Shown here piece by piece: positions 37,354 through 52,715 of a stretch of 64,000 nucleotides of DNA (its first letter is position 1; the number at the start of each line of letters is the position of its first letter). The notes below the pieces were generated by a model. The model made no database searches. It saw only the letters and a program-made list of their open reading frames with translations, and was not told the DNA's origin. Location of the stretch: assembly GCA_010093605.1 (NCBI GenBank), contig MU004188.1, positions 1,243,673 through 1,307,672 on the forward strand. Reading direction: 5' to 3'. The DNA is from Lophium mytilinum. Its lineage: Eukaryota. The position numbers and the translations under genes were made by a program.

Positions 37354-40300
37354 CTACGCAAACACATCAGTAGCATACCGCTCATTCCTAATCCCCTCGA
37401 ACCACCTCTCCGCATCCGCCTCCCCCCTCTCCTTCCCCAGCTCCCTTGCTCGCTCCAACCACATCTTCCGCGCCGCGACCCCCACCGCCTCGCCCACCTC
37501 CCGACTGCCGCACACAAACACCTTCGCACCCTGATCGAACAGCGCAACCACTTCTCTGCGGTCCGCCCACAGCCGATCCTGCACGTACTTGCAATTCTCA
37601 GTTTCCGCGGGCGCGCGCGAGTAAGCGCGACGCACAGAAACGGCGCCCATAGCCTCCCAGCGCGCGAACTCGGCCGGGTACAGGTCGTCGGTGGTGGCGG
37701 AGTGGCAGCCGTAGAAGAGGAGCGCAGGGGCGAGAGGGCGGCCAGCGCCGATTTGGGCGGCGCGTTCTTGGATGAAGCCGCGGAAGGGTGCTATGCCTGT
37801 GAATCATTAGTACTGTTGTGCTTTTGAGAGAACGAGGGGAAAGGGGTGGTGCACCTGTTCCAGCAGCGATGCAGATCACGGGCACGTTTTCTGCGTCTTT
37901 GGGGAGGTGGAAGGCTTGGTGCGATGGCCGGATTGAGACATGTAGTGTGTCGCCTGTCTCGAGTTGGGAGAGGTAGCTGGATGCAACGCCGACGTGGCGG
38001 CCTTGGCCGCTGAGTGCAGGTTGATCGAGAACCGCGTAGGTAAGGGTGACGTGGGAAGGGTTCCAGAGGGGAGAGGAGGAGATAGAGTATTGGCGGACTC
38101 GCATTGGGGGGAGCATCTGCAAGAAGGGTCCGAGTGGGAGCGTCACGGACGGGAAACGTTCCAAGAGGTCGAGGAGGGATACACGCTTTGTGCTAATTTC
38201 GGTTGCGAATTCAGGGCCGCTTAGGCGCTTGAGTTCAGACTTGGCTGCTTCGTCGGTAGTGAGCTCCGCAAGTGCGAGGAGGTTGCGCTTGCTAGCTGGT
38301 TGAGCAAGCTCAATGTATGCTCCGAATACGTCTGCAGCGGAGACAGGTAGATCAGTTGGTAGAGTCGTAGGATGGGCGGTTGAGATCGTCAGCGTCGAGT
38401 CCAGGGCCAGCCCAAAGTACCGCATAGCACGATGAACGTTCTCCTTCGGGTTCAGGGGAAGTATGGCTAAGTAGTCGCCCGACGAGTAGGTCTGGTCTGA
38501 GGGCAGACTAATTTCGATATGCCTCTTCTCAAAAACCTCGGGTGTCGATAAAACCTTCGTGTCCACCACACGGGCCTCCATGACGTCCTGTCGAAGCGTG
38601 GATGCGCGAGGTGCGGATACTTCTATGTTAAGGCTAGCATCGAAGGACTCTCCTTCGGGTAGATCTGACGCTCCGTATTTCTTCGTCATGGCTGGCCAAA
38701 AGACTTGGTCTTCCCAGGTTTCAAAATCGGTGAACATGTCGCCCGCTGCAGCATTTGCTTTCCCCATTTCCACGATACGCTGGCCACCGCGCTGTTCTAG
38801 TATGTTGTCGATAGCCGTGGGAATCTTGTGGAATGTTTGAGCCCAATCTTGGTGACCACATCCGAAGACCGCATAGGAAACGTTTTCCATCTCGGAGCCC
38901 TTGAGAGACTCGAGCCACGAGAAGAAATGGCCAGCATTGTCGGGGGGCTGACCTTCGTACGATGCTGTGATGATTACAACGGGTTTATCGCGAGACAGAT
39001 TCTCCTTTGCAGAATCCAAAGTATTGACGACTTGTGCTTGGAACCCGTAGCTTGGTGCATCGCCCGCGAGTCTTTGCGCAAGAGCCTCGCAGGTGCCTGT
39101 GTTAGATCCATAGTAGATGGCTAGAGGCTTTCCAGTTTTCAAGGGCTTTTTAGCGGCTCCGTTGGTTTTCCCTTTCGATGGCGGCGCAGCTGACGGATTG
39201 AGCGATACCGAAGCTAATGATCGTTCTAGCGATGTTGGAGTGGCTTGATTCCTCAACTGTGCGCGCATATTGAATCCTTTCGGCTTAATCGTCAAGGTCT
39301 GTTTCATTTGAAGCTGATACGACGCAGAGTCCATTGAGAAGTTGAAATGTTGGAGCAGCATAGCAACGACAAGCAACGCCTCCTGCCATGCAAACGGGCG
39401 ACCAATACACCCGCGCATGCCGTTCCCGAACGGTTTCCAACAGTTTGGATGCTCGTTCTGAACGCGTTCGAACTCGGCGTCGAGCATTCTCTCGGGTTTC
39501 CATTCTGCGGCGTCTTCGCCCCAGACTAGAGGATCTTGTTGGATGGTTGGGAGTACCGCTACTATAGCTTCGCCCTTTGGGATTTCATATTTACCAGCGA
39601 GTACATCGTCTTCCTTTGCTGTAAACACTATCATAGGAGCGGTTGGCCATAGCCGAAGAGTCTCTCTCAGGATCGCGTTGATGAAGGGGAGTTTTGAAAG
39701 ATGATCAACGTTGATCGGGCCCTTTCCAATGACCGAATCAACTTCTTGTTGAGCTTTCTGATATGCAGCGGGATTCTTGAGAAGGTAGTAGAAAGCGAAA
39801 CTCAACATGCCCGAAGTTGTTTCGTGTCCTGCGATGAGAAACGTTATCATGTTGTCAGTGATGCTGTCGTCGGTCATGCCCTCCCCCGTTTTTGGGTCTC
39901 TTCCATTCAGCATGGCATTGAGGCTGCATCAATTAGTCTCATTGCTCATTGATCAAGACAGTTCTACATGCTTACAGGTCTTTTCGGTCAGAAGGATGAC
40001 TGCGCCTTGTCTTGATCACATCATCGCTTGTCTTTCGTAGAAGAGCGATGTCCTCTTCATACTTGCGTTGCGCCTCACGATAGAAAATTTGCGTGACTGC
40101 TGGGCGTCTACTCCGGTCTCCGGATTCTCGGAGAAAAGCGCCCATAGCGTCAATGAAAGGGTGCAATTCTTCATGGTAGTATGAATTGAAGCGGAAGTCC
40201 ATGGCACACAGCGCCAACGTGTCCAAGGTAAGTCTCGTAAAGTCGTCCGATGCGGGGATCACATGGTCTGGTCCATGTCTGGCCCACTTCATCACCAGTT

Positions 40301-40849
40301 GCGACGCAATGTCATGCATTTCGTCAAACATTCCCCTGATGGACAGCGGGCCAAAAGCGGGTATCAGAATACGATGCGCAATGCCCCAATTTCTTTCCTC
40401 AGGGCCATGCGCCGTGAAAAGGCCGTCTTTGTTATATATTAGTAGAGTAAGGTGTAGCATTTCGGGCAATGCGCTTATTTACCATGCACGCCATTCCGTA
40501 CCTCCTTTAAAGCAGAGGCAATGTGTTTACTGAATCTCTTCTCGTCACAGACCTCGTTCATCAACTCATGCGAGCCAATGAAGTATCTGGGCACTCCAGC
40601 AAAAGACAGTTTGAATATGGGGCCTAGACGTAGGACGAGTCAGTACGATAATTGCCAAAAAGGGAGAGATCGACAATTCCTGGACTCGGCTTGAAACCCG
40701 AAGTCTGTCCAGAAAACTAAAAGCAAAGACTAACCGTGGAGCTCATGGAGATGCATAAACGAGCGAATTGGGAGCTCGGGATCGATTTCGCGGATGTTGC
40801 CAAAGATTGGGACACCAGGCGGACTCGGAATAGGAATCATTTCAGGCAT
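37354..40849 (-). CDS. CYP505: Self-sufficient cytochrome P450/NADPH-P450 reductase fusion, CYP505 family (P450foxy-like fatty acid hydroxylase)
   Basis: AGHETT, ExLR, heme motif PFGNGMRGCIG, flavodoxin YYGSNTGTCE and TASYEGQPPDNA, FAD/NADPH motifs RQYSISSSP and AAGTGIAPFRGF, C-terminal RYATDVF. Multi-exon. Confidence 0.96.
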
Positions 40850-47670: not shown

Positions 47671-50535
47671 ATGGATCCCCTCACGATAACCACAACAGTG
47701 GTGAGTAACTCAGTATAGACGCCGAGCACTGTTGAGCTGATACCAGGCAGGTCAAAGTCTCATCAACATGCCTATCAACCGCGAAAACGTTGTACGAGGT
47801 TCGAGCACAATACAAGGATGCTCCCATGTACATTGTTTCGATAACGTCCGAGATCAGTGTGATCAGTGCATCATTATCAAACGTCCAGAGCCTTCTCCTC
47901 CGCGACCCTGATCTACCGAATCTCCTTGCGTTGAGACCAGAACTCATCGCGGCGTTAGATGCCTCTCTAACAGGATGCATGGTATTGTTCAGCTGTCTAG
48001 ATGATGAGATGAGCCGCATCACCGCATCTTCACAACCTGGAGCCATTTCGTGGAGGAGCAAGGCGCGAATGGTCTGGAATAGAGACAAGCTAAGAGAGCT
48101 GCTAGAAGCCTTGCGCGGATTGCAGATGTCGATGAATATGCTTATACAGCTTCTACAGGTGTTCGTCCTCCAGTATGTCATTGGCGAAGTGATCAAGACT
48201 GACTTTGTGTTACAGAGATTCGCTTGCGGAGATCAAGAGAATAGTCGAAGAAGGCAGACCTGCACTTGCAGCCACCGTCCAAAGAACGCAATCTCTTCGC
48301 TCCTCGTATCCGCAAATTGGCGTTGCTGAGTCGGTATACTCCCAAGACGATCGAGTGGGTGGCGGTGAGGTCGAGGAGTATGCGACCAGCATTTGGTCCG
48401 ATCGAGAATTCGACTTTGACGATCTTATAGTGAGTAGTAAGGTCTATCGTCGCGCACTTGCAGCTGCCAGAGCGGGCAAACAACCCTCAGATGGAACGAC
48501 AAATGAGCAAAATACGGATGAATCGAATGAGCAAGCTGTGTTCGGGGGTGATCTGATTGATTTCTCAGACACTGCTACCATAACTCAGAAGGTAGTCGAT
48601 CAACCTTCGATATATGGCGCCACTAGAGAGCTTGCTGGCTTGACCCTCTCAGACTCGGATCCGGCAGGCTCGGATCCAAAAGTCCTGGCCCAGTCCGTCA
48701 ACGAGCAGACCAGACTAGCACCAGGTCTTACAAGAATCCCTCACGAAGTCAGAACAAAGCATCAGCAAAGCTACCAAAAGGAAGAAGCGGAACCCGATAC
48801 TGCACTGCCACGGCAAGAAGCTGAGCAGGTTGGATTTACCAGCTTACAGAAAAGGACTCAACCGATCGGCACCCGCGTATGTAGTAAGTGCGCGGAACCT
48901 GTGACTGGTCAATTCGTGCGCGCTTTAGGTGGCGAGTACCATCTCGAGTGTTTCAAATGCGCTGTGAGTAATTGATCTGGAATTTAAAGCTCAACTTCTC
49001 AACCCGTCGCAGGATTGCGGCTTGTTCGTCGCCAACAAATTTTTTCCTGTTCCCGAAGAAGGTCCTAATCAGTACCCCCTCTGCGAAACTGACTATTTCC
49101 GCCGCCTTGATCTCCTCTGTTTTACCTGCGGTTGCGCTCTCCGAGGATCCTATATCACAGCACTTGAACGCAAGTACCACGTCGGACACTTCACATGCTC
49201 GGTCTGTCCACACGTCTTTGGAGCGGAAGAATCCTATTACGAACACGATGGCAAACTTTACTGCCATTACCATTACACCACTGCGTATGCACAAGACTGT
49301 TCAGGCTGCCAGACCGGCATCCTTAAACAATTCGTTGAAATTTTCAGGACTGGTCAGAGTGAGCATTGGCATCCTGAATGTTACATGATACACAAATATT
49401 GGAATGTGCGGCTTGAGTTGTATGGCCTGGTGACAAAAAGGGACTATGCACCGGGAAGCGAGGTTGATGATGAGAGCCGGAATCTCTTGCAAAGAGAAGC
49501 GGAGGAAATGGAGGAGAGAGTCTACAGAATATGGAAAGTCCTCTCGGCTTTTGAGGAGTATTCTGCCACACTGCTATCAGACGTTCTACTCCACGTTGCG
49601 AACGGCAATGCTCTTCTTGCCGTCCCCCCAATGGCTAGATTAATCGAAAACATCAGCGGCTACATCGAATGCTTGCTAGCCGTAGATATTGTTAGGATGT
49701 CAAAGGGATTCGAGAGTACGTATCTAAAGACGCTGTTGATGCCATGTCTAACGCAGTTCTAATTAGGGCTTTCGATAACGCGCGAGTTCAAGCTACTCTG
49801 CAAAAAGATTGTAACGATGCTCTCAGTCATGACGGTACCCAAAGGGGGCGTCACACAAGAACTCTTATCTGTCACCACCGGGATGGCGCATTACAATAAG
49901 CTCCTCATCCGGATTGGCTTACAAGGTGCCCTTCAGTCAAGTGCTCTTAGTACTTTCCTCGATCTTATTCCTACCAAAGGGCAACAAGAGCCTCTCGCCA
50001 CTGGAGTCAAGACAGAGAGATTGGCACAACTAGCACAGAAATCAGCGGACGAGTGTGACTGCTGCGGAGAAAAGGTCGAGGGGGCTTGTTATTTGATTTC
50101 AGATCTCCTGTACCACATGAACTGCATTTCTTGTCCTCAGTGCAAGAAGACTGACGCATATACCTCGGAGGATGATCGAGAAGAGCGCGAGCGCGGTAGC
50201 TGCAGATTCTGTGGTTGTCTTCGCGATGAGAATACCACCTTCCTTGGCAAAAGGAGACAGTACATACACCTCCTCTGGGTTGCCTTCGCAAGGTTTTTGG
50301 TATCAAGCAAAATCGACTGGACGGTGGCACTGAAAGCCGAAAGGTAACATTTATGACGCATCTTCAGAGCGTAGGCCCGACTATAGCCAACAGCTGCTAA
50401 CCAACAAATAGCGATATGCCTGAGGAGCCTGAGGAACCTACCAGGAACCAAGCATCTAAGCCTGATGGGTCAACTGATTCACTGCATGTTCATGATATAC
50501 GACGTATTGTTGCTACACAGCAAAGCTCTCATTAG
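47671..50535 (+). CDS. HeLo-like N-terminal domain fused to Lrg1-type LIM zinc-finger module, lacking RhoGAP domain
   Basis: MDPLTITTTV|VKVSSTCLSTAKTLYEVRAQYKDAP...ITSEISVISASLSNVQ...WRSKARMVWNRDKLRELLEALRGLQMSMNMLIQLLQ and FDFDDLIVSSKVYRRA. Then CSKCAEPVTGQFVRALGGEYHLECFKC|DC, PLCETDYFRRLDLLCFTCGCALRGSYITALERKYHVGHFTCSVC, ILKQFVEIFRTGQSEHWHPECYMIHKYWNVRL and QYIHLLWVAFARFL. Five introns; stop at 50533-50535. Confidence 0.85.
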
Positions 50536-50686: not shown

Positions 50687-52715
50687 TCACCAAATCTCCT
50701 CATCCTCATCCTCCGTCTCCTCATCCAGCCCCTCCTCTTCATCCCTCACAATCTCAATATCAACATACAGATCCAGCGGCTCGCCACTCCCCCTATGATT
50801 ATCACTACACACATTCACCCACCTATTCAGATTCCGCTTCATAACCTGGAACTTCGCCTCGTCACCTCGGTCAATCAAACCCCCCTTGTGGCGCAGATTA
50901 GGCCCTTCGAGCGAGAAAACTAGCCCACAAACATTCGCGTCGAGCTCTAGCTCAAGGAACAACTGGGCGAGGGTCATGTCTTGGAAATTGCCCTCCGGAT
51001 ACCAGTTCTTGGTCGACAGCACTGGAGTGCGGGATAGGATGATGCTGTAGGAGTAGTCGAGCTTTGGTCGCGGGAGGCGGGGTGTTGTGGGCGTGACGCG
51101 GTGGCTTGGGGGGCCGGTGCTTTGCCGTTTTTCTGCGGGTGCGAGAGTGGTGGAGCGTGGTGCTGCGGGCGGGCGAGTGGTGGGCTGCCCGTCCTCTGTG
51201 AAGGATGCAGCCGCAAAGGACGTGGCCGCAAAAGATGTAGCCGCAAAGGACGTCGCCGCATTGGAGAAGGGCGTAGGCGCCGCGGGCGGGCGAGTAGTCG
51301 TCATCAGCGCGTCCTCCATATTGGATATAGCCGCGTTGGATAAGGGCGTAGGTGCCGCGGGCGGGTGAGGAGCAGGTATTCGCTCGTCCTCCATATTGAA
51401 CATAGCCGCCCTGGATAAGGGAGTCGGCTGGGCCCTTACGAATGTTCTACGGGCTGGTATCTCTCGCTCTATCACTGAGTCCTGTGACTGAGTGTCCATA
51501 GTGTGGGCCGACAATATTACCAGCGATTCCTCTTGACTTTGAACCACATCATTCTCGAGTGCGCCGGTAGACCTCTGAGACTCGATGGCCTCGAGTATTC
51601 GCTTTTCTGCTTCCGTGTCATAATAATTCTTCGGGCCTTTCCTGTCGCGGCCCGTTGTGCGAGCTTCGTAAATCGATACACTTGGCGCCGCAGCTGCTGA
51701 ATGATCCGAATCCTCTGAATACAGCTCGTCGTCGTCGGACTCGAACCGGGAGATTTTGCGTCGCTGCGCTGTTTTGTGCGGAGAGATATCTTCGGCGGAT
51801 GCGGGACGTTTCGAGCCTACTGTCCTCGTAGCGCTGTCTTTTTCTTTTTGGATGTAATATGGATTGCGGCTTTTCTTCTACGTTGCATCAGCCTTGCACT
51901 GCCGTTTTCGGCCATCTATGTCGTGTTTGGCTGCTCTCTTGAAAACGTACCGCAAAACTCCGCGCCTGCAAACCAGGATGTTGATCTTGCTCGTTACCCA
52001 CTGGGTCGGGTGGAGCAGGAGATCCTTCTTCCGCGGCCAAGTCTACTGGATCTGCGGCGCTCGGAGAAGCGCTTCTTTCGCCCTCAAGTCGCGTAGGGTT
52101 AAAGCTTTTGACGAGGTTAGAGATGAGATAGTATATATACAGGTTGTTAGTTGAGATCTCACTTAGGTAACATGCCGGAATGGCTCTCGAGTGGGGTTTC
52201 CGGGCTCGTGTCCCTCGCATCGGTGGAATTATCCACTATTTCGTCTATTTCGGCAGTGATCTTGTCTTTGTTATTGCGTTGTTCATGTTGCTTTATATAC
52301 TCTAATTTGTTAAAGCGAGATATAAGCTTTTTCAAAAGATCAGTGATTCTATTTGAGGTTAGCATTTATAAACTTAGGCTACGAATGAGCATTGGGCATA
52401 CTTTAAATGGTCCCTAGAAAGTCGGAGAGCATTATATTTGTCTGAAGTACTGTTGTCTGGCCAATAAAAGCTTCCCCTCCTCCTCAAGAATGCGGCCGTC
52501 ATTTCTTCAAGGCCAGTCTGGTGCTCGGGCGAGGGGTTCCAAATATACAGCTCCGCACCTGAGAGATCAGATCTTGTCCGATAGTTCGCAATAAATGATC
52601 TGACATCGTTGCAAAAGGAAGCGCCAGCAGTCCCAGGTCCATACCCCAGTTGCTTACGGAGCTCAGTGGCTTTGGGTGTAGCTGCCATGGTAATACTGGA
52701 TTTCGCTGGACCCAT
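50687..52715 (-). CDS. Uncharacterised two-domain protein, paralogue B
   Basis: ATG at 52715 (MGPAKSS). ORFs 52374, 52159, 51888 and 50687 are joined by three introns, including 51878-51950 (gtacgt...gctgat...tag). Aligns with paralogue A at both ends. Confidence 0.8.
51160..51430 (-). repeat. Coding tandem repeats in paralogue B
   Basis: 15-bp units gccgcaaaggacgtg/gccgcaaaagatgta/gccgcaaaggacgtc (TSFAA repeats) nested in ~75-bp units (PPAAPTPLSNAAISNMED-like). Confidence 0.85.

Follow-up and report, generated by a model that had tools for sequence, protein, structure and literature searches.

A spliced, expressed gene of Lophium mytilinum joins a borderline HeLo-like helical bundle to an Lrg1-derived LIM module without a RhoGAP domain

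HeLo-like domains are considered the most common death-effector domains in fungal immune receptors, and to our knowledge their control is known only in amyloid- or NLR-linked cases. The corresponding Pfam family, PF17111, is Helo_like_N (HeLo-like, HELL), which currently carries the Pfam name PigL_N. In the available portions of three papers, PF17111/HELL is treated as membrane-targeting and as related to the MLKL four-helix bundle (PMC9815663, PMC12881547, PMC10197012). Excerpts of one of these place the family among the pore-forming effector domains of NLR systems, and describe a short helix between long helices 3 and 4 of MLKL and HeLo-like domains (PMC9815663). Proteins that combine HELL with a kinase or pseudokinase are described as MLKL-like in an excerpt of another (PMC12881547).

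The second described system of relevance is Lrg1 (LRG-1), the LIM-domain Rho1-specific RhoGAP of fungi, whose LIM domains direct it to septal pores and tips, according to the portion available of a study that also covers Magnaporthe oryzae (PMC3914944). The same excerpted source presents Ldp1 as the fourth LIM protein of M. oryzae, with orthologues named in Neurospora and Chaetomium, and places it outside the paxillin, Lrg1 and Rga1 clades; Ldp1 is not named as a RhoGAP in the available text, which attributes no growth, conidiation or infection phenotype to the deletion mutant (PMC3914944).

Here we report a gene in which these two kinds of protein meet. It lies in the window, by which we mean the whole 64-kb stretch of DNA analysed, where an earlier note had proposed a HeLo-like domain fused to the LIM region of an Lrg1-type protein at 47671-50535 on the plus strand. 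Those coordinates proved exact, with the ATG at 47671 and a TAG stop at 50533-50535, and the motifs that the note had cited (HPECYMIHKYWNVRL, QYIHLLWVAFARFL and the W..KA..VW ending) are all present in the gene model. The gene has six exons and a CDS of 2592 nt encoding 863 aa, and its five introns, of 50, 55, 49, 51 and 68 nt, are all GT..AG. Two of them had been placed at 48160-48215 and 48965-49012; these are real, each was off by one base (corrected to 48161-48215 and 48964-49012), and three more are present.

A contig from the public run X1 (3887 nt, 0 mismatches) spans 47769 to past 50900, its coverage beginning 98 nt into the CDS region and downstream of intron 1; it skips exactly 48161-48215, 48964-49012, 49716-49766 and 50344-50411. 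The label of the run, 'RNA?', is a guess, and the run was treated as cDNA-derived solely because the contig is without exactly these four introns. In the contig, exons 2 to 6 follow one another with joints at the predicted GT..AG sites, so the bundle exon and the LIM exons share one spliced molecule. The fusion of bundle and LIM module is confirmed, and the gene is expressed. Its exons and introns are as follows.

47671..47700, plus strand: exon 1 (aa 1-10, MDPLTITTTV), start of bundle helix 1; same start as in the orthologue P0001, outside the X1 contig
47701..47750, plus strand: intron 1, 50 nt, GTGAGT..CAG; placed from the reading frame and the orthologues, without read support
47751..48160, plus strand: exon 2 (aa 11-147), remainder of the HeLo-like/PF17111-like helical bundle; PF17111 match and AF2 model
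48161..48215, plus strand: intron 2, 55 nt, GTTCGT..CAG; contig joint 48160->48216, yielding LLQ-V-DSLAEIK as in the orthologues
48216..48963, plus strand: exon 3 (aa 147-396), post-bundle helix, conserved motifs, disordered linker and first half of LIM1; contig, and a LIM match at the exon end (24.6 bits)
49013..49715, plus strand: exon 4 (aa 397-630), end of LIM1, LIM2, half-LIM3 and start of the helical domain; Pfam LIM, 54.7 bits, in two stretches
49716..49766, plus strand: intron 4, 51 nt, GTACGT..TAG; contig joint 49715->49767
49767..50343, plus strand: exon 5 (aa 631-822), remainder of the helical domain, LIM4 (50054-50212) and the terminal QYIHLLWVAFARFL helix (50252-50305); Lrg1 alignment
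50344..50411, plus strand: intron 5, 68 nt, GTAACA..TAG; contig joint, listed as 50341->50410 with 'cut +2'
50412..50535, plus strand: exon 6 (aa 823-863) and TAG stop, an acidic, polar tail; gene model and contig

An alternative intron-2 donor, GTATGT at 48173, which would add 4 aa, is ruled out by the contig joint 48160->48216. The 41-aa tail encoded by exon 6 matched no Pfam family; MAFFT sets VHDIRRIVATQQ within it against IGDIRRLRSQR of canonical Lrg1, which is weak evidence that a trace of the post-LIM4 segment of Lrg1 survives there.

The N-terminal domain comprises aa 1-146; in the window protein, as in its orthologues, Met1 is its first residue. It also holds an N-terminal position in its relatives, as query residues 1-4 mostly fall at residue ~11-14 of the matched protein among the 150 phmmer matches listed. 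Against PF17111, whose gathering score is 27.2 bits, exon 2 alone (without aa 1-10) scored 15.9 bits (E=0.009), and the complete N-terminus of P0001 reached 22.9 bits (E=6e-5, residues 1-151 on profile positions 1-142), still under the threshold; the orthologues, at 22.9, 21.7 and 20.4 bits, all lie below it. Relatives of the exon-2 bundle numbered 455 at E<=1e-3 in phmmer. Seven of the 69 long homologues pass the PF17111 cut-off (27.5-34.0 bits), themselves retrieved at phmmer E values of about 1e-19 to 1e-25, and 23 of the 69 reach E<=0.001. Among homologues consisting of the domain only, 29 of 64 match PF17111 at E<=0.01, and the one other recurrent family is SesA, found in 2; PF17111 clusters also account for 20 of the 30 ESM-Atlas neighbours of the bundle. 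The kinship that had been claimed with HeLo-like domains thus stands in a qualified form, with the domain itself under the cut-off and some of its homologues above it, and these matches suggest a borderline, transitive relative of PF17111.

The AF2 model of the exon-2 piece (pLDDT 92, pTM 0.82) contains helices at 2-20, 26-51, 55-61, 63-91, 101-109 and 111-135. Comparison in VIA-align gave Z scores, which below ~13 are not diagnostic for helical bundles, of 10.8 for the MLA13 CC domain (rmsd 2.5, 111 aligned), 10.6-11.3 for Rx CC, 9.7-10.5 for NRG1.1 CC-R and 8.8-9.5 for MLKL, each of these matches lying at the N-terminus of the matched protein; the unrelated generic bundles of IncA (12.8) and Cbl TKB (12.1) score equally or higher. 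HET-s HeLo is not among the structural neighbours listed, which weighs neither for nor against the kinship. A Foldseek search of the bundle model against the PDB gave no match at E<=0.001, and phmmer of P0001 against PDB sequences returned LIM proteins only, leaving the bundle without a match. Helix 1 (aa 4-22) is weakly hydrophobic, with a Kyte-Doolittle mean of 0.77, and does not stand out as a membrane-spanning segment. Conservation within the protein is highest in the bundle, which is 92% identical to its Mytilinidion counterpart, compared with 68-78% in the Lrg1-derived regions (72% in LIM1-3), and 48-56% identical to Leotiomycete proteins.

Between the bundle and the LIM module lie three further features.

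48223..48306, plus strand: long 'brace'-like helix directly after the bundle, aa ~150-177; helix 150-177 in the AF2 model of P0001, block pLDDT 86-95
48409..48453, plus strand: FDFDDLIVSSKVYRR motif (FxFDD..S..YRR), aa 212-226; pattern present in 65 of 85 long family members
48478..48870, plus strand: variable linker, aa ~235-365 (~130 aa), probably disordered; pLDDT <50 at residues 235-408 of the P0001 model

An RTQSLR (RxxS) motif at 48283-48300 closes the helix, over which the window protein shares 85% identity with P0001. The FxFDD..YRR motif falls in a helix (213-233) of middling confidence in the P0001 model, and the linker beyond it is 56% identical to that of P0001 with 55 gap columns. 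We refer to the bundle, the following helix and the FxFDD..YRR motif together as the N-module. Counted by C-terminal partner, the pattern occurs in 22 of 24 LIM, 15 of 18 RhoGEF, 2 of 4 kinase and 6 of 10 other fusions and in 20 of 29 proteins with no partner, and by this count it appears to be a hallmark of the N-module regardless of what follows it.

The C-terminal part was proposed to derive from Lrg1 without its GAP domain, and this is supported. Residues 362-827 align with 39-521 of the 1140-aa canonical Lrg1 P0093 (48.9% identity, E=2e-148), and the module retains the canonical order of LIM1, LIM2, half-LIM3, helical domain, LIM4 and terminal helix. The Pfam LIM matches comprise one closing exon 3, two in exon 4 and one, below the cut-off (17.9 bits), in exon 5.

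48880..49093, plus strand: LIM1, aa 369-423, split by intron 3 (48964-49012); Pfam LIM, with ligands C369, C372, H389, C392, C395, C398 and C420 kept
49118..49282, plus strand: LIM2, aa 432-486; ligands C432, C435, H452, H455, C458, C461, C480 and H483 kept
49298..49414, plus strand: half-LIM3 with the HPECYMIHKYWNVRL segment, aa 492-530; C492, C495, H516 and C519 kept in 16 of 16 fusions

With C727, C730, C753, C756 and C776 of LIM4 (50054-50212) also kept, the window protein retains, across LIM1, LIM2, half-LIM3 and LIM4, every zinc ligand that is invariant in 24 canonical Lrg1 proteins. The LIM2 ligands are kept in 13 to 16 of the 16 fusions, the least constant being H483 (kept in 13 of 16 and replaced by Asp in 3). 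Exon 4 is 58-71% identical to canonical LIM+RhoGAP Lrg1 proteins, LIM1-3 are identical at 120-125 of 160 residues (75-78%), similarly for every class sampled, and the region of the P0001 model matching the Lrg1 module of exon 5 has pLDDT >90. No Pfam match to RhoGAP (PF00620) was obtained in any exon, or in the orthologues P0001, P0002 and P0007, and when two full canonical Lrg1 proteins were compared with the whole 64-kb window by tblastn only the LIM regions matched, the RhoGAP halves (beyond ~520) giving nothing at E<1. The transcript runs into its stop after the 41-codon last exon without a RhoGAP domain.

The fusion is found in two classes, Dothideomycetes and Sordariomycetes, where seven genera contribute at least nine named proteins that carry it; Sordariomycete members include Podospora P0277 and Ilyonectria P0137. 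Mytilinidion has the fusion P0001 and a separate full-length Lrg1, P0093, and Clohesyomyces likewise has the fusion P0002 and a separate full-length Lrg1, P0126. In the tree, the 16 fusions lie together on one side of a branch (SH-aLRT 99) and the 24 canonical Lrg1 proteins sampled all lie on the other; the canonical set follows the class phylogeny and the fusions have longer branches. Identity over LIM1-3 is 72% between fusions and 93% between canonical Lrg1 proteins for species pairs that are only roughly comparable and whose divergence times may differ, which suggests that the LIM module of the fusions evolves several-fold faster. The LIM module of the window protein is, on these alignments and trees, an ancient, faster-evolving paralogue of Lrg1 and not its orthologue. 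A recent date for the capture of an Lrg1 piece is not supported: the family is old, spans two classes and sits on a well-supported branch of its own. Recent gene conversion from the resident LRG1 finds no support either, as LIM1-3 are equally similar to canonical Lrg1 of all classes and the tree of LIM1-3 alone gave no resolution. The fusion belongs to an old, undescribed family: a full-text search of the literature found no paper on a HeLo-like domain with a LIM domain or with a RhoGEF.

Other partners of the N-module were found among the 69 long homologues, namely RhoGEF (15), PX (2), MSP (2), MIT (1) and, by weak matches, SH3 (2); for the RhoGEF partner the ESM Atlas gave generic DH/PH clusters only. 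In the N-domain tree, four kinase fusions (P0005, P0006, P0275 and P0129) form one clade (support 99) inside a clade that holds all 24 LIM fusions (support 96). Three of the kinase fusions have HRN, HRG or HRA in place of the catalytic HRD, P0129 showed no HRD-like motif, and at the DFG position all four are non-DFG (GFS, GFG or none). The window protein itself has no Pfam match to a kinase domain, pseudokinases being confined to the nested sister clade. The closest relatives of the N-module carry a pseudokinase where the window protein has its LIM module.

No NACHT or NB-ARC domain was found in the 25 long ORFs of the window, in the window protein, in the orthologues that were profile-searched or in the 69 long homologues, and the NLR-type 'integrated decoy' frame in which the gene was originally cast therefore receives no direct support.

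The 863-aa protein consists of two folded modules joined by the disordered linker of ~130 aa. We tentatively prefer, as an unproven reading, that it is a self-contained, MLKL-like membrane effector aimed by its Lrg1 module, following MLKL-like and not NLR logic. The Lrg1-derived module would still bind whatever partners recruit Lrg1 to septal pores and hyphal tips and would serve as an address or a switch; the bundle would be a latent membrane-acting effector that the following helix and motifs restrain, perhaps via the RxxS site. A changed state of the Lrg1 docking site, for example upon damage, cell-wall or Rho1 disturbance or non-self contact, might then release the effector locally. Several observations weigh against this reading: the sub-threshold PF17111 scores of the window protein and its closest orthologues, generic bundles (IncA, Cbl TKB) that score at least as well as the immune ones, and the weak hydrophobicity of helix 1. 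The strong conservation of the bundle resembles a housekeeping interaction domain more than a fast-evolving immune effector, and the RhoGEF, PX, MSP, MIT and SH3 partners would suit a plain membrane or polarity scaffold equally. A broader proposal, which we consider unlikely, is that the N-module defines a Pezizomycotina family of NLR-independent, MLKL-style executioners, each guarding one hub and killing or sealing the compartment upon disturbance of that hub, the window gene being the Rho1-GAP guard. The C-terminal switch domains (the Lrg1 LIM region, DH-type RhoGEF, pseudokinase, PX, VAP-type MSP, MIT and SH3) would then be copied parts of polarity and trafficking hubs, either non-catalytic or degenerate, and the family, if real, would amount to a fungal form of the integrated-decoy principle contained in a single protein.

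It is possible, if somewhat doubtful, that the protein is instead a non-lethal regulator of polarity or cell-wall integrity, whose bundle anchors it to a membrane or protein and whose GAP-less module competes with Lrg1 or scaffolds beside it at septal pores and hyphal tips, tuning Rho1 output as a paralogue that is dominant-negative or an adaptor and takes no part in cell death. The closeness of LIM1-3 to canonical Lrg1 and the retention of all zinc ligands make shared Lrg1 docking partners plausible, and fusion of the N-module to other polarity and trafficking domains, the high conservation of the bundle, the age and cross-class spread of the family and its want of an NLR context all agree with such a role. 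Against it, the sole recurrent sequence kinship of the N-domain is with PF17111/SesA, a pore-forming effector class in the available part of the source (PMC9815663), sister proteins carry pseudokinases in an MLKL arrangement, and the LIM module evolves faster than canonical Lrg1 by the identities given above, with the same reservation on divergence times.

The decoy originally suggested, taken here as an Lrg1 mimic struck by microbial effectors or toxins that attack Rho1 or cell-wall signalling and thereby trigger a death domain, seems to us very unlikely. Its bait-like part is indeed a non-catalytic copy of a conserved hub protein, near canonical in LIM1-3 and faster-evolving overall, related N-modules bear other non-catalytic or degenerate copies in the form of pseudokinases, and relatives retain a separate full-length Lrg1. 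Known integrated decoys, however, sit in NLR receptors, whereas no NOD domain occurs here or in the 69 homologues, and we know of no fungal antagonist effector directed against Lrg1. Hints of an arms race, such as copy-number expansion or presence/absence variation, are not apparent in the data examined. That the locus is an artefact or a dead gene (a chimeric annotation, a decaying LRG1 duplicate or two genes) is extremely improbable and already contradicted, for although public orthologue gene models disagree at the 3' end and at intron 2, which leaves the family annotation shaky, the spliced contig links exons 2 to 6 in frame, the 863-aa frame is open with canonical introns, the same architecture recurs in at least nine named proteins of the two classes and the zinc ligands are conserved across 16 fusions.

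The family described here is a subfamily apparently without an amyloid or NLR link, its bundle being coupled instead to parts of Rho, polarity and trafficking proteins. Should the bundle prove to be a regulated membrane effector, as in the MLKL-like reading that we prefer, these proteins would give genetics an easy way into a necroptosis-like switch of fungi and would link cell-wall integrity signalling with regulated cell death. If it is not, bundles of the PF17111 type also have an ordinary anchoring role, and caution would be due in equating a 'HeLo-like' annotation with immunity.

Set beside effectors of the HELLP/HET-S type, which carry HeLo and HELL domains, the window protein is alike in having its bundle at the N-terminus from Met1 and in having PF17111 as its only recurrent Pfam kinship. 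It is unlike them in that the Lrg1 module stands where the C-terminal amyloid motif region would be, followed by a polar tail of 41 aa, and in that no NLR is fused or adjacent to it (64-kb window; 69 homologues). Its PF17111 score is under the family cut-off, and its conserved following helix and FxFDD..YRR motif set it apart from the HELL domain as described in the available portions of the literature. As in MLKL and HeLo-like domains, a short helix is predicted between the third and fourth long helices of its bundle. Like MLKL, with its four-helix bundle, brace and pseudokinase, and like the fungal HELL-kinase/pseudokinase proteins, it is built of an N-terminal bundle, a long helix and a non-catalytic regulatory domain, and in the N-domain tree the pseudokinase fusions are nested among the LIM fusions. 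It differs from MLKL in that its C-terminus is a LIM/helical module from a RhoGAP and not a pseudokinase, and in the disordered linker of ~130 aa that parts the modules; we know of no RIPK-like activator for it. The likeness to Lrg1 extends over residues 362-827 (49% identity, 76% in LIM1-3, with ligands kept), and the differences are the missing RhoGAP domain, the other N-terminus, the well-supported branch (99) that stands between them and the longer branches of the fusions. Like Ldp1, the fusion family has Sordariomycete members, a comparison made with the description of Ldp1 in the available part of its source. As a lead, Ldp1 may belong to the bundle-LIM fusion family, in which case the missing phenotype of its mutant would argue for a conditional role.

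The gene runs from an ATG at 47671 to a TAG ending at 50535 on the + strand and has six exons:

47671-47700, + strand, exon 1
47751-48160, + strand, exon 2
48216-48963, + strand, exon 3
49013-49715, + strand, exon 4
49767-50343, + strand, exon 5
50412-50535, + strand, exon 6

Joined by script, the exons form a 2592-nt frame of 863 codons whose sole stop is terminal, and the five introns (50, 55, 49, 51 and 68 nt) are all of the GT..AG type. Transcript evidence was taken from Logan contigs of the single public sequencing run with the locus (X1), the kind of which was only guessed as RNA. A 3887-nt X1 contig matches with 0 mismatches from 47769 to beyond 50900 and omits exactly 48161-48215, 48964-49012, 49716-49766 and 50344-50411, each GT..AG-ended. 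Because it skips exactly these four introns, the exon of the N-terminal helical bundle (residues 1-146) is joined on one spliced molecule to the LIM exons and to the short exon 6, as the earlier note had proposed across two of the introns. Intron 1 lies outside the contig and is placed by the reading frame and by the closest orthologue, which likewise begins with MDPLTITTTV. An alternative intron 2 donor, GTATGT at 48173, is unused in the X1 contig. From their sequences, two public orthologue models appear to be misannotated. That of the Mytilinidion orthologue, P0001, ends in ..LKAER and seems to lack the last exon: at this point intron 5 is spliced out of the window transcript and 41 more codons follow. 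That of the Clohesyomyces orthologue, P0002, carries 17 extra residues precisely at the intron 2 position, starting like intron read-through, and seems to have retained that intron.

By sequence, the C-terminal two thirds of the protein is a GAP-less Lrg1 paralogue. Pfam detects LIM where exon 3 ends (24.6 bits) and in two stretches of exon 4 (54.7 bits); a weak match in exon 5 (17.9 bits) falls short of the 22.9 cut-off, and no Pfam RhoGAP domain was found in the gene. With exon 4 as query, 1184 proteins were retrieved at E<=0.001 among 2275 candidates; orthologue aside, the best 120 matches (58-71% identity, many named Lrg1 or Rho-type GAP) are LIM+RhoGAP proteins of ~1000-1230 aa or shorter LIM-only entries taken to be fragments. 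Residues 362-827 of the spliced protein align with residues 39-521 of P0093, the canonical Mytilinidion Lrg1 (1140 aa), at 48.9% identity (E=2e-148), and the parts follow in the same order as in Lrg1: LIM1, LIM2, a half-LIM3 with HPECYMIHKYWNVRL, a helical domain, LIM4 and a terminal helix. Every Cys/His zinc ligand invariant in 24 canonical Lrg1 proteins is present in the window protein; among 16 fusions of bundle and LIM region, 13-16 keep the LIM1-3 ligands and 10-12 those of LIM4, the remainder being gaps or truncated models. When two full canonical Lrg1 proteins were compared with the 64-kb window by tblastn, their LIM regions matched and their RhoGAP halves had no match at E<1. Since the matches are confined to the LIM regions, the window contains no hidden GAP exon and no canonical LRG1, and the GAP-less LIM region described in the earlier note is upheld. 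In exon 6, MAFFT aligned VHDIRRIVATQQ with the post-LIM4 Lrg1 segment IGDIRRLRSQR, weak evidence which hints that the break with Lrg1 may lie slightly further downstream than the LIM4 helix.

The bundle appears to be a genuine, if borderline, relative of the HeLo-like family PF17111 (HELL; currently PigL_N, earlier Helo_like_N), a kinship that runs through its homologues. Exon 2 alone scored 15.9 bits (E=0.009) against a cut-off of 27.2, so the HeLo-like N-terminus that had been read from the sequence stands as a relationship through homologues and falls short on its own score. Full N-termini of orthologues reached 22.9, 21.7 and 20.4 bits, with residue 1 on profile position 1. A phmmer search of 1.84 billion representatives with exon 2 gave 455 matches at E<=1e-3, 233 at <=1e-10 and 13 at <=1e-30, the match being at the extreme N-terminus in most of the 150 listed. 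Among 69 homologues of at least 300 aa, scanned for domains out of the 148 new proteins in those 150, PF17111 was found at E<=0.001 in 23 and above the cut-off in seven (27.5-34.0 bits). Of 64 domain-only sequences, 29 matched PF17111 at E<=0.01 and two matched SesA; they showed no further recurrent family, Harmonin_N matching once in one sequence. PF17111 clusters also made up 20 of 30 ESM-Atlas neighbours (best score 0.94). The AlphaFold2 model of the bundle (64-row alignment, pLDDT 92, pTM 0.82) has four long and two short helices, a compatible fold. Foldseek found no match to it in the PDB at E<=0.001. Top VIA-align rows, whose values are not diagnostic for helical bundles, include MLA13 (10.8), Rx (10.6-11.3), NRG1.1 (9.7-10.5) and MLKL (8.8-9.5), with unrelated bundles equal or higher (IncA 12.8, Cbl TKB 12.1); the matches to plant CC and CC-R domains and to MLKL each fall at the N-terminus of the matched protein.

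The conserved N-terminal module exceeds the bundle and is promiscuous in its partners. P0001 (877 aa) was modelled with AlphaFold2 from a 61-row alignment, at a mean pLDDT of 77.7. After the bundle, this model has a long, confidently predicted helix (150-177), then one of middling confidence that carries FDFDD..YRR (213-233), a stretch below pLDDT 50 (235-408) and, from ~410 to the C-terminus, a LIM/helical block that is again confident. Of 85 long family members, 65 show the pattern FxFDD..S..YRR, regardless of downstream partner. Two other short conserved motifs in the linker, RTQSLR (RxxS) at the end of the post-bundle helix (48283-48300) and the acidic-hydrophobic GDLIDFSD (48538-48570), are matched by loose patterns in 39/85 and 24/85 long members, respectively; speculatively, a phosphorylation site and a docking motif could lie here.

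Partners of the N-terminal module among 69 scanned homologues
RhoGEF: 15/69
LIM: 9/69
PX: 2/69
MSP: 2/69
SH3: 2/69 (below cut-offs)
Protein kinase: 1/69
MIT: 1/69
Vts1: 1/69
Ankyrin: 1/69
Kelch: 1/69 (below cut-off)
No other family: 34/69 (11 PF17111 alone, 23 nothing)

By BLASTP against Lrg1, the Lrg1-like set rises to 20 of 155 proteins with the N-domain. DH-type RhoGEF is the commonest partner (15/69 plus three named proteins), and its fusions (P0142-P0147, P0159, P0176, P0181, P0184, P0189, P0193, P0210, P0250, P0255, P0273, P0279, P0280 and P0282) are spread over several separate N-domain clades. The PX, VAP-type MSP, MIT, Vts1 and ankyrin partners (P0151, P0185, P0173, P0202, P0162, P0174, P0264) are all membrane, trafficking or RNA-regulation modules.

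Named carriers of bundle and LIM region are Mytilinidion, Clohesyomyces, Microthyrium, Baudoinia and three Elasticomyces entries in the Dothideomycetes, and Podospora aff. communis and Ilyonectria in the Sordariomycetes. RhoGEF versions among named proteins are from Lasiodiplodia and Coniochaeta, and pseudokinase versions are found in the Leotiomycetes Rutstroemia, Phialocephala and a Mollisiaceae species. In Mytilinidion and in Clohesyomyces, a separate full-length Lrg1 exists beside the fusion. When 16 fusions and 24 canonical proteins were compared over the Lrg1-like region in a quick IQ-TREE tree, a single branch (SH-aLRT 99) parted all fusions from all canonical proteins; the latter follow the class phylogeny, and end branches are 0.03-7.2 (median ~2.2) in fusions versus 0.02-0.32 in canonical proteins. 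An 83-row tree of the bundle places the 24 LIM fusions without exception in one clade of 35 (support 96), which they share with four kinase fusions nested as one clade (99), one MIT fusion, one PX fusion and five proteins without partner. Given the carrier classes and the trees, the fusion looks old, from before the Dothideomycetes/Sordariomycetes split, which argues against a recent capture of a piece of Lrg1. The trees are compatible with a single origin of the fusion, and the Lrg1 module seems to have been swapped for a pseudokinase in one lineage.

Identity of the window protein with its Mytilinidion orthologue and, second, of canonical Lrg1 between Mytilinidion and Cenococcum (divergence times of the two pairs perhaps unequal)
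Bundle: 92%; n/a
Following helix and motifs: 85%; n/a
Linker: 56%; n/a
LIM1-3: 72%; 93%
Helical domain: 68%; 84%
LIM4 and terminal helix: 78%; 76%

With 120-125 of 160 residues shared, the window LIM1-3 is no further from canonical Lrg1 of any class than from its own orthologue (113 of 159). Being equally near canonical Lrg1 of all classes, it gives no sign of recent gene conversion, and its sequence indicates that a canonical-like surface has been retained.

The X1 contig continues into a convergent ORF, 50687-51877 (-), and the two genes probably give transcripts with overlapping 3' ends. This ORF encodes 396 aa without a Pfam family; its C-terminus is acidic, and short AATSF-like peptide repeats occur in tandem. 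A self-sufficient P450, in which a cytochrome P450 is fused to flavodoxin and FAD-binding reductase domains, lies at 37598-40478 (-), intron-split over at least two ORFs.

Family proteins are listed in the public database records found here only as hypothetical or 'LIM zinc-binding domain-containing'. Full-text searches returned no literature on a HeLo-like domain with a fungal LIM domain or RhoGEF, and among six listed of the seven papers mentioning PF17111, no title or abstract concerned the bundle+Lrg1 architecture. Ldp1 of Magnaporthe oryzae, dispensable according to an excerpt of PMC3914944, its knockout showing no developmental phenotype, may be a member of the family.

These data demonstrate the architecture, expression and ancestry of the fusion gene. 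For its function we tentatively favor an MLKL-like self-contained effector. The Lrg1-derived module would provide an address, through the partners that direct Lrg1 to its sites at septal pores and tips (PMC3914944, in excerpt), and perhaps also a switch; the bundle, once released, would act on the membrane. Nearly as likely is a non-lethal anchor, competitor or scaffold in Rho1/polarity control, favored by the fact that the bundle is very highly conserved and by the polarity/trafficking nature of the other partner domains. That the Lrg1 module is a decoy, the bait idea of the earlier note, is possible and rather improbable: it has no direct support, and an NLR-type integrated decoy does not fit here, as NACHT and NB-ARC are absent from all 69 scanned homologues and no NLR is present among 25 long ORFs scanned across the 64-kb window (these include the P450-reductase fusion, MFS transporters, HIRA, Tim54, a CPL-domain protein, UPF3, a GEMI5-like TPR protein and several of unknown family). 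An artefact or a dead gene is essentially excluded.

Kinase fusions of the N-terminal module occur in the Leotiomycetes (P0005, P0006, P0275 and P0129). HRD reads HRN, HRG or HRA in three of them, and P0129 showed nothing resembling HRD. The DFG position in all four is GFS, GFG or nothing recognizable; judged by these motifs, the four partners are pseudokinases. Excerpts of PMC9815663, PMC12881547 and PMC10197012 describe PF17111/HELL as homologous to the four-helix bundle of MLKL and as targeting membranes. The joining of bundle and pseudokinase gives an architecture like that of MLKL, and HELL on kinase or pseudokinase proteins is likewise termed MLKL-like in an excerpt of a 2025 review (PMC12881547).
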